The notes under the pieces are model-generated. The model saw nothing but the letters and a program-made list of their open reading frames with translations. It ran no database searches and was not told the origin of the DNA. DNA of 64,000 nucleotides, from the NCBI RefSeq assembly GCF_041248615.1, contig NZ_CP158426.1; one strand, given 5' to 3'. Numbering within the stretch: the stretch's first letter is position 1; the number at the start of each line of letters is the position of its first letter. The translations under genes were made by a program, and so were the position numbers. The stretch comes from Escherichia coli. GTDB lineage: Bacteria; Pseudomonadota; Gammaproteobacteria; Enterobacterales; Enterobacteriaceae. Of the stretch, positions 1-53,840 are shown piece by piece.

Positions 1-725
1 TTGTTTATCTTGACTGTATCGTCCTGAAAGTTCGGCAGGACAGTCGCATCATCAACAAATCGGTGTTCCTGGCACTGGGCATCAATATCGAAGGTCAGAA
101 AGAACTGCTGGGTATGTGGCTGGCCGAAAATGAAGGGGCGAAGTTCTGGCTCAATGTGCTGACTGAACTGAAAAACCGCGGTCTGAACGATATCCTCATC
201 GCCTGTGTGGATGGCCTGAAAGGCTTCCCGGATGCCATCAACACAGTATATCCGAAGGCCCGCATCCAGTTATGCATCGTGCATATGGTGCGCAACAGCC
301 TGCGCTTCGTGTCATGGAAGGACTACAAAGCCGTCACTCGCGACCTGAAAGCGATTTATCAGGCTCCCACGGAAGAGGCAGGTCAGCAGGCACTGGAAGC
401 GTTCGCTGCGGCCTGGGACAGTCGCTATCCTCAGATAAGCCGAAGCTGGCAGGCTAACTGGCCGAATCTTGCCACGTTCTTCGCTTATCCAACGGACATC
501 CGCAAAGTGATCTATACGACGAATGCCATCGAGTCGCTAAACAGCGTGATCCGCCATGCGATCAAAAAGCGTAAAGTGTTCCCGACAGACGACTCGGTGA
601 AAAAAGTGGTGTGGCTGGCAATCCAGTCTGCGTCCCAGAAATGGACGATGCCGTTGAAGGACTGGCGAATGGCAATGAGCCGCTTTATTATCGAGTTCGG
701 TGACCGCCTGGACGGTCACTTCTGA
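1..725 (+). CDS. IS256-family transposase, C-terminal part (5' end lies outside the window)
   Basis: Frame of ORF 63..725 stays open back to position 3; translation carries IS256/mutator-type transposase motifs (NEGAKFW, ACVDGL.GF, CIVHMVRNS). Recognised from memory, not searched. Confidence 0.85.
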   Translation, partial: VYLDCIVLKVRQDSRIINKSVFLALGINIEGQKELLGMWLAENEGAKFWLNVLTELKNRGLNDILIACVDGLKGFPDAINTVYPKARIQLCIVHMVRNSLRFVSWKDYKAVTRDLKAIYQAPTEEAGQQALEAFAAAWDSRYPQISRSWQANWPNLATFFAYPTDIRKVIYTTNAIESLNSVIRHAIKKRKVFPTDDSVKKVVWLAIQSASQKWTMPLKDWRMAMSRFIIEFGDRLDGHF

Positions 726-1044
726 GAAAAGGCATTTACACAGAATCCTAAACAGGCTCTACGACATGGCTATTCCGTATGAACCATACGGAGATTTAAC
801 CATGGCACATTCTTTACCATTCCTTCCGGCAACCGATACAGCACATCCTCCGATGTCCATCCCTGCCTGCTGACAGTTTTTTACGCCGGAGGGCCATTGT
901 GTGACAACCACAGTGCTGTAACAGCAACCAGCCTGCTTTACCCAAACTCCAGTCCAGATTTTAACTGAACCGCCATTCACACCCTGACCACACTGCCCGT
1001 ACCGGGACAGCTGTTGCCTGCGTGTCGTCTGGCTGCTGAGGAAT

Positions 1045-1434
1045 ATGACGATGTACGCAAAATCCTTTATTGCATTTGATGGCAACGGGCGTCTGACGGG
1101 TGCCCGTACCGCACAGACTGCACCTTACGATCGCTACACTTGCCACCTTTGCGGCAGTGCGCTCAGATACCACCCGCAATACGACACTGAGCGTCCCTGG
1201 TTTGAACACACTGACGACGGGCTGACGGAGCACGGTCAGCAGTGCCCTTATGTCAGACCGGAACGCAGGGAGATACAACTGATTAAGCGTCTGCAGCAAT
1301 TCGTACCGGATGCCTTACCCGTGGTGCGTAAAGCCAGCCGGCACTGCAGACAATGTCATCACGATTATTATGGGGAGCGGTACTGCACGCACAGCCATAC
1401 CGGGCACTTCAGTGAGGAGGGGGTGGCAGAATGA
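1045..1434 (+). CDS. hypothetical Cys-rich zinc-ribbon-like protein (129 aa)
   Basis: ORF with CxxC-x13-WFEH motif and a second Cys/His cluster (CRQCHHDYYGERYCTHSH); GAGG 3-4 nt before ATG 1045, alternative ATG at 1051; stop overlaps start of next ORF (ATGA). Confidence 0.5.
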   Translation: MTMYAKSFIAFDGNGRLTGARTAQTAPYDRYTCHLCGSALRYHPQYDTERPWFEHTDDGLTEHGQQCPYVRPERREIQLIKRLQQFVPDALPVVRKASRHCRQCHHDYYGERYCTHSHTGHFSEEGVAE

Positions 1435-1856
1435 ACGGTATAAAAACGGGGCTGGGGATCACGCCGGGTGAACACATTATCAGTGCTGATTCTGCGCTCA
1501 GCAGAAATATCCGGCAGTGTTTCTGCCTTTCCTGTCATGGCCGGTTGATTTTGCAGACAGATGCTCAGGGGGCGTGGTTTGAGCACGATTTACATGTCCT
1601 GAGCGAGCAACAGAAGGCAGCCTGCGTGGTGCTGAATCCGGAAAAGTCCCACCCTTACATTGAGGATATGGAGATGTTTTTATCGCCATTACCGGTCGTG
1701 CTGGAGTGGCATTGTGTGATGTGTGAGCAGTTTTTTCATGGGAAGAAATTCTGTGAGGCCTGTGGTACGGGGATTTATTGCAGAGCGGTATGTACGAAGT
1801 CTGTTTACAGCTACCAGCCAGACTTGTTTCAGGACTGCGGAGGTGCGAGTACTTAA
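1431..1856 (+). CDS. hypothetical Cys-rich zinc-ribbon-like protein (141 aa), paralog of upstream ORF
   Basis: CxxC-x12-WFEHDLH motif plus CxxC-x9-CxxC-x4-C-x3-C cluster; start codon overlaps upstream stop (ATGA at 1431-1434), suggesting translational coupling. Confidence 0.5.
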   Translation: MNGIKTGLGITPGEHIISADSALSRNIRQCFCLSCHGRLILQTDAQGAWFEHDLHVLSEQQKAACVVLNPEKSHPYIEDMEMFLSPLPVVLEWHCVMCEQFFHGKKFCEACGTGIYCRAVCTKSVYSYQPDLFQDCGGAST

Positions 1857-2057
1857 TCCGAAATGCCCGACCTGCTCAGGGCGTTCAGAAGTATCGGAAC
1901 CTGCATTTTATCTGGTGTTTCGCACCCACCCCGTTCGTGACACAAAGGCGCGACACCGGATATCCGCAGTCCTGCTTACCTGAATAAAACCCGGGGTATT
2001 GATTGTGTACTGTGGTGCGAAATCGCACCGTGATCGCGGATTCGCCGAATCCGCACT

Positions 2058-2300
2058 GTGGTGTCAACCAACCATACGCGAGAGTCCTCTCCGTATTTAT
2101 CAGTGCCTCAGGACGATTTCTGCATAGTTAATCCAGGGGGCTGCATTGTTTATTTCCCTGCTAATGGACGTGACATCCAGGATATTCATGATCCTGATTT
2201 CCCTGAGCAGTATCAGCGCTTATTGGAGCGTCTGGATTATCAGACGATGCCCGGTACTAAAGCATCAGGCCAGCGTAACTCTGGCTACAGCGGTTTTTGA
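2058..2300 (+). CDS. doubtful ORF (80 aa), possibly a gene remnant
   Basis: ORF begins with GTG, contains no ATG start, no clear ribosome-binding site; same frame as ORF 2328..2894 but separated by two in-frame stops. Confidence 0.25.
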   Translation: MVSTNHTRESSPYLSVPQDDFCIVNPGGCIVYFPANGRDIQDIHDPDFPEQYQRLLERLDYQTMPGTKASGQRNSGYSGF

Positions 2301-2327: not shown

Positions 2328-2894
2328 ATGTATACAGAATCAAATGTTAAGCTTTCCTGTAACGCCCTCTGGCAAAAGTGTGTCCTTGCAACTCTGTATC
2401 GGGCTGCAGCCACACATCCTGAAATTAAATTATTACAATTTAAATTAATACCAGGGCAGGGTATTAATAAGGCCATTCCCTCTCTGATGGCTGATTTTAC
2501 TGGTGAACTGCATAGACTCATTTCTGAATATTTGCAGTGTAAGCGACGTAAAGAGCAATCTGTTGAGCCCACCCCTTTATATTATCTCTGGAGTAGGGAA
2601 GCTGTGGCTAACGATACCACTCCTTATCTTATGGTGCTGCTACTTAATAACGATGTCTGGTGTAAGAGTCGTGAGGTGGTGGTTCTCAGAAATCTGATTG
2701 AGCAGGCGTGGGGAAAAGTATTGGGTGAAGATAACTCCATTACACATCTGGTTGTGTATCCTGAAGTGCTGTCGTTGGTATTTGATGCAGCTAACACATA
2801 CAACGCTGAGCCTGCTGTACTGGAACAGACGGCCCGGGCTTACATTGAATCACATGGTACCATTGAACGTCATCTTGGGTGTAGTGACTTTTAA
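2328..2894 (+). CDS. hypothetical protein (188 aa)
   Basis: ATG preceded by AAGG about 8 nt upstream; moderately AT-rich; followed by a stem-loop at 2911..2938. No family recognised. Confidence 0.45.
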   Translation: MYTESNVKLSCNALWQKCVLATLYRAAATHPEIKLLQFKLIPGQGINKAIPSLMADFTGELHRLISEYLQCKRRKEQSVEPTPLYYLWSREAVANDTTPYLMVLLLNNDVWCKSREVVVLRNLIEQAWGKVLGEDNSITHLVVYPEVLSLVFDAANTYNAEPAVLEQTARAYIESHGTIERHLGCSDF

Positions 2895-4671: not shown

Positions 4672-6098
4672 TCATGCCAGTGGACTCATTACCCTCTGCC
4701 TGAGTAGTTCAAATCCTGCTCGACCATACATCTGGCGTTTCAGCATCTTCAGGCGATTTACATGACCTTCGACAACACCATTACTCCAGTGACTACTGAT
4801 TGCCTCACATATAGCTGCAGCATCAGCTTCCATCCCCGCCGCCACGCGCCGAAATTCTGCTGAACCGCTTTCGTGGACTCGAGTGAACCAACTGCTTAGC
4901 TGTGATTTATTTTGGGTTTTCAGAATACGGTAGAACTCGAGTGCCAGTTGCTGCGCTATTTTCAGCTCAGGTTCTTTTTCACACATCAGACTAATAAATC
5001 GGGAAGCATAATTTTCTTCATCCCTGGTTATTCTCCAGGGCATCAACCAGCGGCTTACCCGGGACACTGAAGGAAGTCTGACGGCAGTAGTAACCGGTGG
5101 GTTCCAGCCTTTACGCCATTTGGCAACCGCATCCCTGACGATGGTTTCACTGCCTGTAAATCCCCGGGCCACCATTTCCCGCCATATCCGGCTGGCGTTA
5201 TAATTACCACTTTCTCGTTGCTCTTTTAACCACTCCCTCCATGGGTCCAGAAGCCCTCGCTTTGGCGGTCGGGTTGACATTTCAGGGAATGTTCCTGAAC
5301 GCACCCAGCGACTGACTGTCACACGCGACAGGCCTGTAATACGGGATATTTCCCTGAAACTACATCCCTTGTTATGCAGGGCCATAACCTCTGTCCAACG
5401 CTGATGCCGTTTTTTGCGGGTTTGTTGTTTTAGGCGTTCCGGACGACGGAGCGATGCTGCAGGCACAGATGGTTCTGGATCAGGTGATTTCTTTGGTGAC
5501 AACTCACTGGCAACAAGACGTATCAGAGGTATATGTCTATACATCATTCGTTCAGGCGCATCGCCAATATTTTTTAGCAGATGCCATCGATCGGCCACCT
5601 GTCTGGCCTGAGGTGCACCTTCACGTGCTGCTGTCGCATAGACTCCACTGCGATCACGCGAGACAATCTGTATTTCCGGATATTTTCTGAACCAGGTCGC
5701 CAGCGTACGCTGATCACGGCCGGGAAGCAGGACGAGGGGACGGTGAGTATCAAGATTGACGATTAACGTACCGTAACGGTGGCCCCGATGCCACGCCCAC
5801 TCATCAATACCGACATGAGGCGAGCCTGACTGTTTCGTCTCCGGGGTATTGATAACCCTGCGAAGGAGAGTATCAGCACTGCAACGGAGACCCACTGCCG
5901 TTGCTGCCCGTTTCCCGGCCTCACCTCCGGCGATTAATCCCAGTTGACGTTGTAAATTTTGTAACGCCTGTGAAGACTGTTGGTGTGAACCGGCGAAGGG
6001 AGCAAGCGACTCGGCAAAAATTTTACGTGAACAAGCCGGGTTACGGCAGTACCAGTGGCGGACAGAAAATACAAGCCATAGCGTATGTCCTGAGCAGG
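4672..6098 (-). pseudogene. ISL3-family transposase, C-terminal ~475 aa, interrupted by IS2
   Basis: C-terminus carries ISL3 signature (SNGVVEGHVNRLKMLKRQMYGRAGFELLRQRV); N-proximal zinc-finger-like RHWYCRNPACSRKIF; ORF runs 12 codons into IS2 end at 6099. Confidence 0.8.
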
Positions 6099-7569: not shown

Positions 7570-7782
7570 ATGTGTATCCGGGATGGATGTTTACCAGAAC
7601 CTTCTCTGTTCCAGTGTGTGGAGTTTTACAGAAGAGGCGACTGTATGCAACTCTTGCCCCGTAACTGTCTTTATTCGTTTCTCCACACTCTCCGGACATT
7701 GTAAATTCCAGATGTGTGGCAGTGTGTTTTTCGTAAATCGTACACAATGCATTTTTACACGGAGTTCAGCCAGTCGTATCAC
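7570..7782 (-). pseudogene. probable N-terminal remnant of the ISL3-family transposase, beyond the IS2 insertion
   Basis: Short frameshifted minus-strand ORFs (7520..7747, 7591..7782) adjacent to the IS2 junction; assignment by position and weak similarity only. Confidence 0.35.
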
Positions 7783-8036
7783 TGAGAGTTTTTTTTCTGA
7801 TTTGTACCACTCATGCAGCAGTGATAAGGAGATATTTTCTCTGTCGGGCCAGCAGGGGCGGTGCCACCTGTTTAGTTTTCTTATGTTTGGTAAAAGAGAG
7901 GCTAAAATATATACAACAGGCGCATGTAATGATTCATATTGTTAATCATTAACCAGTAAGAATTAATGTAGTGGATCGGTAATTCAGGACACCTCGAAAT
8001 CCTGTTAATGTTAAAACAGTGAAAATGGGGTGATGC

Positions 8037-8519: not shown

Positions 8520-9229
8520 CAGCCCGCATTGTTGGCGGTACATTTCAGGGATGACTGCACCCAGCGAAAATTTTATACGCCGCTCGTTATACCATCTGAT
8601 GTAAGCATCCACATGCCGCATGAATTTTTCAGGCGTGATACCCAATCATTTACGCCCATAATATATTTCAGTTTTCAGTCTGCCGAAAAAGCCTTCGCAT
8701 GCAGCATTATCAGGCGAGCATCCTTTACGGGACATTGAGCGAATAAGGCCTGCTGTATTCACTCTTTCCAGCCAGGCCAGCGATAATGCCCACCTCTGTC
8801 ACTGTGTATCACCGGTCGTTCGCCAGCATTTAACGTTTCGACAGCGTTATCCAGCATAGTGTTGACCAGTTCAGCATCGGGGCGTGTACTGAGAGACCAG
8901 CTCACAACTTTTCTGTCGAAGCAGTCCACCACCGGTGATAGCCAGACTTTTCCTGCAGGAAGCTGGAACTCCGTGATATCTGTCAGCCATTTCTGATTAG
9001 GTTGCTCCGCCTTAAAATCTCTGGCGATAAGGTTATCCGGAGAAGGTCCGATTTCTCCGCAATATGAGCTGTAGCGGCGATGACGGTTACGGCTGACGAC
9101 AAGCTGTTCCTCCACCATAAGTCTGCGTACAACCTTTTCTGATAGCCGATCCCCCTCATGCCTGAGCATCGCATGCAGGCGACGATAGCCATAACACTGG
9201 TAATTACTGTTAAATATATCTGTCAGCAT
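8520..9229 (-). pseudogene. IS3-family transposase orfB (DDE), frameshifted
   Basis: ORF 8759..9229 has DDE-region motifs (WLTDITEF, HSDRGG); downstream out-of-frame segment encodes SMSRKGCSPDNAACEGFFGRLK. Confidence 0.75.
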
Positions 9230-9337
9230 CGTACGTATCGTGGCGTATTTATCACTGGCTTTCAGTGCAGCCCGGTGATAAAAATAACTGCTACGGGCAA
9301 GGCCCAGAACATGCAGTAATTCTGTCAGGGGATATGT

Positions 9338-10041
9338 TTATCTCAGGGCATCAGTAATCTTTGTTTTTTCTCTGTTGTTCAGGTGACTGATGCTGATGCC
9401 CGGGTCTTTTTTTATTATTTCCTCCGCTTTTTTCAGAATATCCAGTTCCATCTGCCGGCGGCGTATTTCCTGATTCAGTCGGGCGACTTCCTCCCGCAAC
9501 GCATCGCGTTCTGCCTCCAGGGAAGGGGCGTTATGTTTACGCATAGTCTGGTAAGCACTGTTGCCGATAATTTCATCTTTCCATTTATACAATACCGCGC
9601 GACTGACACCAATACGCCTGGCGATTTCACTGGCTGATCCTTGTCGTGTACAGAGTACCATGACAGCCTGACGTTTGACTTCTGGTTCAAAGGACGCAAC
9701 CGGATTGGTCTTACTGGTAAATACACGTCGTCTGTCGGGGGAACGTTCATTAACCCAGCGAGCGAGCATATCGGTACAGGGATAACCCAGAGTCCTGCTG
9801 GTAAACGCCAGGCAGCAGCCGTGGTTAAGATAATGTTCAACGGCAACCTGTTTTTGCTCATCGGAGTAACGGTGCTTATGACGAATGGATTCTTTTGATC
9901 CGCCACCTGCTTCCCATGAACGGATCCAACGCCGCAGATTTCTTTTCGAAGGGTAGCCCAGTTCGCGTACGACGGGGCCAGCTTCTTACCATATTTGAAA
10001 TAAAGCTCAATGGTGCGAATTTTTTGTTCTTCAGTAAACAT
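9338..10041 (-). pseudogene. IS3-family transposase orfA, frameshifted
   Basis: MFTEEQKIRTIELYFKYGKK at 10041 then a frame shift; ORF 9338..9769 carries the helix-turn-helix and coiled-coil tail. Confidence 0.6.
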
Positions 10042-10291
10042 GTTTCATCTCCTGAGAGTCCAGGAAATCGTCCGCATCCCCTAACGGTCAAAAATCGTGG
10101 CGTTGATACAGGGGAAATCCGTAGTTTTTGATGCCAGCCATAACGTGTTTGACTATAAAGTATTACGAAAGGACTTTAATGAGCCCCTGGAATAATTCAT
10201 TAAAGTAATTTACTTCGCTATCCTTTTCCCAGTTACTCACAAAGAAAAATATTCATAAAATAATTCCCGGGCTGGCAGCCCGGGATGATTA

Positions 10292-11554
10292 CTATTTTAA
10301 TGGATTGTTAATCTTTGCATATTCAAACGGGCTGATACATTGTTCTCTGTTCGCACCCAGAAAATCTGCCCACCACTGTAGCATCAGTCGACGTTCTTCC
10401 AGATGTTCTGCTTTATGGATATATGCAGCACGTACACCATTACGCTCCTGATGGCTCATCTGACGTTCCACAGCATCGCGGGACCACAAACCTGATTCAA
10501 TCAATGCACTGCACGCCATCGCCCGGAATCCATGACCACAGACTTCCTGGGTTGTGTCATATCCCATCACCCTCAGGGCTTTATTTACAGTATTTTCACT
10601 GATCGGTTTACGCGGGTCATGTGCTCCCGTAAAGATCAGACCATTTTCACCAGCCCATGTCTGTAGTTCTGTCAGTATGGCTACAGCCTGTTTGCTGAGT
10701 GGCACAAGATGTGGTGTTCGCATCTTGGAGCCCCGGTGTGAGTATTTTACGCCTGGCAGAGGTTCGCGTTCGGCTGGAATAGTCCACATGGCATTGTCAA
10801 TATCAATTTCAGACCAGCGGGAATATCTGAGTTCACTGGAACGAATAAAAACCAGTAAATTCAGCATAACTGCCAGTCGGGTGACAGGCTGACCTTTATA
10901 ACCGTCAATACGCGACAGAAGTTCAGGCAGGCGTGAAAGATCCAGAGCAGGGCGATGCTGGCGTTTTACCGTGGTCAATGCACCAGCCATATCCAGAGCC
11001 GGGTTATATCTGATGATGCCAGACTGTACGGCATAACGCATTACAGCAGATATTCTTTGCTGCAGACGACTGGCGATTTCATAAATTTGTTTTGCTTCTG
11101 CAGCACGAACAGGGATAAGCAGGTCCGGGGTATTGAGTGTTGTGATATCCCGGTTGCCGATAAAGGGGAAAACGTGTGTCTCGAGGCTTTTGATTACTTT
11201 ATCGCTGTGTGATTGTGCCCATTGTTTATTACTGGCATGCCAGCGTCGTGCAATATGTTCAAAAGAGAGTTGTAAATCAGGGACTACTTTTTTAGCTCTT
11301 TTTTGTTCGCAAGGGTCAATCCCCTCTGAAATCAGTTTTCGGGCCTCATCCCGTTTTGTACGAGCTTCGGAGAGAGAAACTTCTGGATATACACCAAGTG
11401 CCAGAGTCTTCTCCTTACCCAGAATACGATAACGGAGACGCCAGTAACGGGAACCATTAGGATGAACCAGCAGGAACATGCCAGCCCCGTCAGTGAGTTT
11501 ATAAGCCTTGTCAGTGTGCTTTGCAGCCCGGATTTTTGCGTCAGTCAGTGCCAT
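10292..11554 (-). CDS. P4-type tyrosine integrase (420 aa)
   Basis: MALTDAKIRAAKH... N-terminus and length typical of P4/CP4-57-like integrases; about 200 bp from the tRNA-Phe 3' end, same orientation. Confidence 0.9.
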   Translation of the reverse strand: MALTDAKIRAAKHTDKAYKLTDGAGMFLLVHPNGSRYWRLRYRILGKEKTLALGVYPEVSLSEARTKRDEARKLISEGIDPCEQKRAKKVVPDLQLSFEHIARRWHASNKQWAQSHSDKVIKSLETHVFPFIGNRDITTLNTPDLLIPVRAAEAKQIYEIASRLQQRISAVMRYAVQSGIIRYNPALDMAGALTTVKRQHRPALDLSRLPELLSRIDGYKGQPVTRLAVMLNLLVFIRSSELRYSRWSEIDIDNAMWTIPAEREPLPGVKYSHRGSKMRTPHLVPLSKQAVAILTELQTWAGENGLIFTGAHDPRKPISENTVNKALRVMGYDTTQEVCGHGFRAMACSALIESGLWSRDAVERQMSHQERNGVRAAYIHKAEHLEERRLMLQWWADFLGANREQCISPFEYAKINNPLK

Positions 11555-11751: not shown

Positions 11752-11827
11752 TGGTGCCCGGACTCGGAATCGAACCAAGGACACGGGGATTTTCAATCCC
11801 CTGCTCTACCGACTGAGCTATCCGGGC
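11752..11827 (-). tRNA. pheV: tRNA-Phe (anticodon GAA)
   Basis: Reverse complement reads GCCCGGATAGCTCAGTCGGTAGAGCAGGGGATTGAAAATCCCCGTGTCCTTGGTTCGATTCCGAGTCCGGGCACCA (76 nt); pheV assigned by yqgA-speC context. Confidence 0.95.
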
Positions 11828-53738: not shown

Positions 53739-53840
53739 GCCTGATGCGCTACGCTTATCAGGCCTACACGTATCCTGCAATATATTGAATTTGCAGGTTT
53801 TTGTAGGCCGGATAAGGCGTTCACGCCGCATCCGGCATGA
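53739..53840. repeat. REP/BIME repeats
   Basis: GCCTGATGCGCTACGCTTATCAGGCCTAC and GTAGGCCGGATAAGGCGTTCACGCCGCATCCGGCA units. Confidence 0.55.

Follow-up and report, generated by a model that had tools for sequence, protein, structure and literature searches.

Two small overlapping genes in the 64,000-nucleotide stretch of Escherichia coli DNA analysed here (the window), which we call znA and znB, encode ancient paralogues that belong to one small protein family restricted to Enterobacterales. We are nearly certain of the identity of the pair and of its context: the genes are part of a conserved, co-oriented module of integrative islands with a P4-type integrase, and the module also occurs on some large plasmids. 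The order of the module is Rep1, AlpA (on either side of Rep1), ZnA, ZnB and Rep2, so that the two putative zinc proteins lie between an apparently active and an apparently dead Rep-like gene. Our preferred reading, which we hold tentatively, makes ZnA and ZnB zinc-binding accessory subunits of the Rep/AlpA module. The genes borne by these tRNA-integrated islands include those for virulence, capsule, adhesins, anti-restriction and defence, and the replication and movement of the islands after excision are poorly understood.

A first-pass annotation made from the letters of the window had described a translationally coupled pair of paralogous, zinc-ribbon-like proteins. The feature is confirmed as real, non-random and well described; its interpretation as a whole is partly supported. 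As had been stated, the two plus-strand frames overlap by ATGA at 1431–1434, and GAGGAGG at about 1418–1424 precedes the znB start. The length of 141 residues given for ZnB holds, but the 129 residues given for ZnA most likely have to be shortened to 127, with translation starting at ATG 1051 and not at 1045, because the homologues and the RefSeq entry begin with MYAKSF and because GAGGA at 1038–1042 lies 8 nt 5' of this ATG. The paralogy was borne out by pairwise BLASTP (31% identity over 81 residues, E 2e-9) and by the membership of both proteins in the same two Pfam families. Identical proteins already stand in RefSeq, one under the name 'DUF7828 domain-containing protein', the other as a 'putative zinc ribbon protein'.

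DUF7828 (PF25165) matches ZnA with an E-value of 2.8e-31 over model positions 1–87 of 87 and ZnB with 3.7e-22 over positions 2–86 of 87, and it is matched by all 22 family members that were aligned. Zn_ribbon_11 (PF11682, formerly DUF3279) matches ZnB over its full length (E 3.8e-15) and ZnA more weakly (E 1e-4), the weaker match arising because in the window allele the fourth ribbon cysteine is serine and a tryptophan is arginine. The family is already catalogued without an assigned function, both window proteins are exact, full-length members of it, and UniProt entries use the name 'Ybl85'. A literature search found no paper mentioning DUF7828/Zn_ribbon_11 proteins, and the conserved pairing, the A and B lineages and the AlpA/Rep link are in none of the annotations that we saw for the family. 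What is new here is the existence of two lineages, their conserved coupling, the linkage to AlpA and to an apparently active and an apparently dead Rep, the leader motif and a 44-residue ORF. Some members are mislabelled in databases as 'DNA-directed RNA polymerase, beta subunit/140 kD subunit', 'ribosomal protein L37AE/L43A' or 'DNA polymerase III subunit alpha', and none of the searches that we ran supports these labels.

Conserved columns were read from the alignment of the 22 members. C33, C36, W52-F53-E54-H55, C101 and C104 are invariant, and C67, C114 and C117 are nearly so. The C-terminal ribbon has the spacing CxxC-x9-CxxC, and between E54-H55 and the ribbon only C67 and proline residues are conserved. 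From this pattern we infer two zinc sites per protein, a CCHC site (C33, C36, H55, C67) and a CCCC site (C101, C104, C114, C117). The shared architecture seen at first reading thus stands as far as the invariant CxxC and WFEH are concerned, but the spacing of 12–13 residues between them does not: 15 residues were counted in A, and 13 in the B protein. WFEHDLH had also been read as an HxxH, which fell away, as B-lineage homologues have WFEHDQQ or WFEHDTR. The general description as a small, Cys/His-rich, duplicated and translationally coupled pair of zinc-ribbon type is supported, with zinc binding itself predicted from the conserved residues.

In the window allele of znA, AGC (Ser) at 1393–1395 replaces C117, the fourth cysteine of the C-terminal ribbon, and CGG (Arg) at 1339–1341 replaces the conserved Trp99. 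Each change is a single base, and both residues are kept in other E. coli znA alleles; the second zinc site of WP_000270956.1 may be weakened. This Trp-to-Arg, Cys-to-Ser allele is widespread in E. coli.

Table 1. Positions of the genes and elements discussed in the text, in the window and in other sequences.
Feature	Sequence	Position	Strand	Remarks
IS1414 (IS256 family), right end	window	1..759	+	transposase C-terminus 63-725
Leader motif TGCCC-N(3-8)-GGGAC[GA]G	window	994..1010	+	continues ...CCTGC...AAGGA
znA	window	1051..1434	+	A-lineage DUF7828 + Zn_ribbon_11 protein, 127 aa, RefSeq WP_000270956.1; start first read at 1045
znB	window	1431..1856	+	B-lineage DUF7828 + Zn_ribbon_11 paralogue, 141 aa, RefSeq WP_001013324.1
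Hairpin pair	window	2008..2062	+	two DNA hairpins, GTGCGAAATCGCAC and GCGGATTCGCCGAATCCGC, with ACTGTGGTG direct repeats on both sides
Rep2	window	2328..2894	+	YagK/YfjJ_C-domain Rep-like paralogue after znB, without the HUH histidines (PYLMVLLLN) and the YLAK tyrosine motif
P4-type tyrosine integrase	window	10292-11554	-	marks island boundary
tRNA-Phe (pheV)	window	11755-11827	-	marks island boundary; tRNA found by Rfam
ES036 (CssrF) sRNA	window	53760-53802	-	Rfam, 47.3 bits
Rep1/Hha genes upstream of the window	NZ_LT599825.1 (E. coli NRZ14408)	958757-959356		window = 960001-1024000 there, 100% identity
Rep copies compared	L002	23757-24356		
Rep copies compared	L008	6713-7318 / 8839-9474		
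Rep copies compared	L017	7753-8322 / 9903-10469		
44-aa mini zinc-ribbon ORF	L008	7731-7865	+	absent from window
44-aa mini zinc-ribbon ORF	L009	7722-7856	+	absent from window
44-aa mini zinc-ribbon ORF	L013	7732-7866	+	absent from window
44-aa mini zinc-ribbon ORF	L017	8732-8866	+	absent from window
44-aa mini ORF, further copy	L026	about 4891-5034		
44-aa mini ORF, further copy	L015	about 7695-7913		

Both znA and znB are under purifying selection. Between genera dN/dS is 0.15–0.28 for A and 0.10–0.21 for B, at dS values of 0.4–1.5, which supports both frames as coding, in agreement with the first-pass annotation. The order A then B recurs in Mixta, Hafnia, Superficieibacter, Yokenella and K. 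aerogenes, at locus L024, on a Klebsiella IncFIB/HI1B plasmid and on an E. coli IncF plasmid. Outside the E. coli type of the window the stop/start overlap is mostly 13 nt long (ATGCGxATGCTGA) and lies behind a GGAGG-type site, and in K. aerogenes the two genes do not overlap, about 60 nt separating A from B. In E. coli the B protein (MNGIKTGL...) represents a diverged form of this B lineage, with which it has WFEHD and TGIY[SC] in common.

The pairing is conserved within limits and is not obligatory. The neighbourhood survey, proposed at first reading as a check on whether the two genes always co-occur, found the A-then-B order in many genera but also single and non-adjacent copies. A stop codon interrupts B in Salmonella diarizonae, where A is intact; in Yersinia proxima, B is truncated; an intact A stands beside a pseudogene or truncated B at loci L006 and L011. 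Distant relatives occur singly at L022, L023 and L031 and as two non-adjacent copies at L021 and L026, and A/B recombinant chimeras exist (P0074). We also observed tandem reiterations, AlpA-Rep-Zn-(Zn fragments)-Rep-ZnA-ZnB in Serratia sp. Ag1 (L010, 271-4234) and AlpA-Rep-Zn-(Zn fragment)-AlpA-mini ORF-ZnA at L026 (1762-5587), and a third Zn lineage (MQFKK...) exists.

The pair sits in a genomic island at pheV (Table 1); apart from the tRNA, Rfam finds one unrelated sRNA in the window. A contig scan with one narrow peptide pattern yielded 12 loci, and the neighbourhood survey was extended with contigs encoding relatives and with plasmid matches. When HMM matches of the family, of Rep-like proteins and of AlpA were mapped on all fetched loci, an AlpA and/or Rep-like gene adjoined the Zn gene(s) in every one of the 17 loci whose upstream sequence extended for at least about 2 kb, and a Rep gene was present on both sides in 9 of these 17. 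The Rep and AlpA neighbours are usually co-oriented with the Zn genes, and two arrangements were seen repeatedly, AlpA - x - Rep - ZnA - ZnB - Rep and Rep - AlpA - ZnA - ZnB - Rep. The order near AlpA and the Rep-like genes is conserved in many genera and the genes downstream vary, which marks the pair as part of the core module of the element. The earlier assignment to an island was correct in this respect, but its description as cargo was not.

The Rep-like neighbours are YagK/YfjJ ('inovirus Gp2') proteins of ~190–220 residues, with Pfam matches to YagK_YfjJ_C (13 of 19) and REP_ORF2-G2P (12 of 19). Upstream copies, including YfjJ and YagK of K-12, have kept an HUH-like motif (HYHVVLLLN or HAHVVFWLD) and a tyrosine motif (YLAK or YLTK); by these motifs and by their family HMMs they qualify as HUH Rep-like proteins, and they are apparently active. 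In the copies after znB the HUH and Tyr-Lys motifs are gone (PYLMVLLLN, ECKMVLMLN) in every genus examined, and this second Rep looks like a conserved, catalytically dead paralogue. An NCBIfam scan of ten neighbouring proteins was informative only for a GTPase encoded nearby, which matched GTPase families.

In the window itself, IS1414 separates znA from intact genes for an HUH-type Rep1 and for Hha that lie just upstream of the window. Relatives free of the insertion sequence align from window position 760 onward, and in them (for example strain AR13438, NZ_CP097170.1) Rep1 is located 372 nt upstream of znA. The AlpA-like gene of the window is found elsewhere and in inverted orientation. The module of this strain is probably impaired, judged by its sequence, because IS1414 cuts off Rep1 and because ZnA lacks one ribbon cysteine.

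The same islands carry ArdB/KlcA-type antirestriction, DUF932 and RadC/JAB genes, and the island in the window also has a separate CbtA/CbeA system. Defence systems are often the next genes after the module. At one locus (L031, 5641-8420) a Gabija-like OLD-TOPRIM ATPase and a UvrD helicase are encoded just beyond the module, and in K-12 CP4-57 (L003, 8352-14356) AbpAB and RnlAB follow yfjJ. The proximity of these defence systems suggests that the AlpA/Rep(/Zn) module borders a hotspot of defence cargo.

A motif in the leader of znA starts about 45–65 nt 5' of the start codons of A-lineage genes, very divergent ones included. It was found at the equivalent position in 17 loci, once per locus, with constant arms and a variable spacer, and a single stray match was seen in K-12 CP4-6, without a Zn gene. 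We regard it as a candidate operator, promoter or 5'-UTR element. A reading as RNA structure was dropped because RNAalifold showed no covariation in the conserved leader, and a simple promoter scan upstream of znA found no sigma-70 consensus promoter. On the other side of the pair, the 470-nt gap between znB and Rep2 contains two DNA hairpins that are single-copy in the window (DNA fold of 2008–2062, -17.2 kcal/mol, z = -2.8). In other genera the znB stop is followed by Rep2 within about 10–80 nt (about 10 in Hafnia and Superficieibacter), and there is no such gap.

Between alpA and znA some loci have an unannotated 44-residue ORF (MEKRRRTQPWxIPxRWTCPRCxRxYCGAxPCPVCFRP...), which encodes a stand-alone mini zinc ribbon like the C-terminal ribbon of the family (family HMM E 2e-4). 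Its in-frame pN/pS is 0.24–0.49, compared with roughly 0.8–2.4 in the other two frames.

Of the 5426 complete E. coli genomes, 3817 (~70%) contain related sequence by megablast, with a median of two places per genome; in 1334 genomes 80% or more of the 1.1-kb query is matched, which amounts to a near full-length pair region. When 1.84 billion representative proteins were searched exhaustively with a profile, only 273 clusters were returned at E <= 0.001, showing that the family is small. All named matches are from Enterobacterales: Escherichia, Salmonella, Citrobacter, Klebsiella, Enterobacter, Serratia, Yersinia, Hafnia, Mixta, Erwinia, Photorhabdus, Budvicia and Pectobacterium. Among plasmid records only 33 match; most are large conjugative plasmids of Klebsiella, and several of the 33 are chromosome-sized though labelled plasmids. 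Contigs of metagenome-assembled genomes assigned to Bacillota (L005), Collinsella (L016) and Veillonella (P0188) also carry the module, with proteins up to about 89% identical to those of E. coli, and these Gram-positive and Negativicutes matches are probably binning contamination and not part of the real distribution.

The AlphaFold2 (AF2) model of ZnA is compact and confident (pLDDT 90.5, pTM 0.82), and it has no fold match in the PDB. Sequence searches of the PDB, whether started from the single protein or from a profile, yielded nothing significant, the similarities seen being to eL43 and to IAP zinc sites. A fused A-(GGGGS)6-B model, built with 10 true gene pairs as a crude test of a putative ZnA-ZnB heterodimer, showed no confident complex (pLDDT 57, pTM 0.29), values to be read with the shallow alignment in mind, which also lowered the single-domain confidence. 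NCBIfam and PADLOC scans of the pair gave no match, and in PHROGs the sole match was one PHROG of unknown function (E 0.011). No Pfam match to CoiA, Ogr_Delta, Com or TraR/DksA appeared even at E <= 10, and none to HNH was found. A phage origin of the pair was rejected, as tblastn against 50,697 phage records found no homologue.

In the accessory role proposed for them within the Rep/AlpA module, ZnA and ZnB would be supplied in roughly equal amounts by translational coupling. They may recognise island DNA, be it the origin, the nick site or their own conserved leader, or alternatively may bridge the active and dead Rep paralogues, and their part would be in replicating or mobilising the island after its excision, or in the control of those steps. 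This role is favoured by the paralogy and shared domains, the purifying selection, the A–B adjacency, the module map, the Rep motifs, the leader motif and the confident model of ZnA. A zinc-finger DNA-binding domain is often part of HUH enzymes, for example IS91-family transposases and Helitron Reps, and the absence of such a domain from the ~200-residue Rep-like neighbours also counts for the role. So does the report that AlpA and Gp2-like genes are adjacent at the integrase-distal end of Pseudomonas islands and are likely core functions there (bioRxiv 10.1101/2024.08.29.610337). Several observations speak against the accessory role. The pI of both proteins is near neutral (5.7–8.0), which is atypical of DNA binders; the numbers of Zn and Rep genes are unequal, with one Rep and two Zn genes at L011, L024, L032 and L033; and fold searches gave no relative hinting at an activity. 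In addition, no Zn gene turned up when K-12 CP4-57 and CP4-6 were scanned, though yfjJ and yagK are present, so Rep-like genes can exist without Zn genes. If the pair does work with the HUH Rep-like genes, it would offer a handle on how islands replicate and move after excision.

A bolder version of the accessory role, which we consider doubtful, is that ZnA, ZnB, the HUH Rep1, the dead Rep2 and AlpA form an unrecognised multi-subunit DNA-processing machine that replicates or mobilises excised P4-integrase-type islands of Enterobacterales. The 44-residue mini zinc ribbon would join it in some genera, and the Zn proteins, which have no relative of solved fold, would recognise the origin or nick site or pair the active with the dead Rep.

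The position of small, putatively two-zinc proteins directly downstream of AlpA and co-oriented with it, together with the specific motif 5' of each A-lineage gene, would also suit stand-alone regulators of transcription or translation of island genes. Such proteins would be independent of Rep, would act on RNA polymerase, DNA or mRNA as analogues of P2 Ogr, P4 Delta or Mu Com, and would possibly autoregulate through the leader; P4 Delta, a tandem duplicate of an Ogr-like unit, is a precedent. However, the Pfam searches failed to connect the pair with Ogr_Delta, Com or TraR/DksA, its cysteine spacing is unlike that of Ogr/Delta, its pI is near neutral, and it is linked to Rep-like genes no less tightly than to AlpA. 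We give a regulatory role a real chance, though we think it unlikely. Less likely still is an accessory function in defence or anti-defence, for example inhibition of host restriction or immunity on entry of the island, or sensing of phage. The antirestriction, DUF932 and RadC/JAB genes of the same islands and the Gabija-like, AbpAB and RnlAB systems found at two of the loci would fit it, but PADLOC recognised nothing in the pair, which keeps a fixed place beside AlpA/Rep while the cargo downstream varies; moreover, purifying selection is steady, with no arms-race diversification, and homologues are absent from the phage records searched.

The toxin-antitoxin-like module suggested in the first-pass annotation is the least probable of these readings, and we put hardly any weight on it. 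Two small, overlapping and presumably co-transcribed genes on a mobile element are what such an addiction pair would look like, but a type II system consists of two different proteins, a toxin and its cognate antitoxin, whose co-occurrence is obligatory. ZnA and ZnB, by contrast, are paralogues built from the same domains, and no toxin, antitoxin or defence model of NCBIfam or PADLOC matches them, so that they could not be placed among type II systems. Single-copy members exist, an intact A is found next to a B that is truncated or a pseudogene (as in Salmonella diarizonae), and the island already has its own CbtA/CbeA system. The remaining probability lies with something else altogether.

Among known systems, the C-terminal CxxC-x9-CxxC ribbon resembles that of the archaeal and eukaryotic protein eL43/L37Ae. 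The best E-value of 0.057 is not significant and the similarity is that of a generic rubredoxin-type ribbon, but it probably gave rise to the label 'ribosomal protein L37AE/L43A' used by JGI. The resemblance to the finger of CoiA and to HNH proteins that had been noted at first reading is superficial, consisting only of CxxC followed by aromatic-x-H, and found no backing in Pfam, sequence or fold. CoiA has an N-terminal finger and a PD-(D/E)xK-type nuclease domain and is much longer than ~130 residues, and it was rejected for proteins of 127 and 141 residues that have no further domain and no CoiA match; an HNH nuclease, which has a beta-beta-alpha-metal motif with conserved His ... Asn ... 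His/Asn, was likewise rejected, with a Pfam match in 0 of 22 family members, no nuclease domain and no conserved catalytic Asn or His. With IS91-family transposases and Helitron Reps the pair shares the association of a zinc module with an HUH-motif Rep-like protein. This is a functional analogy only: ZnA and ZnB are separate polypeptides, and homology as well as interaction with Rep would be hypothetical. The pair could not be assigned to the Ogr/Delta family, which it does not match in Pfam. Unlike Ogr and Delta, whose cysteine spacing is CxxC-x22-CxxxxC and to which they have no detectable sequence similarity, ZnA and ZnB have the spacing CxxC-x9-CxxC, two predicted zinc sites each and a distinct N-terminal domain, and they are encoded by two separate genes and not by a fused one. 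They are nonetheless like P2 Ogr and P4 Delta in being small zinc-binding proteins, as predicted, of P4/P2-type mobile elements, and P4 Delta is itself a duplicated Ogr unit, which parallels the duplication that gave rise to A and B.
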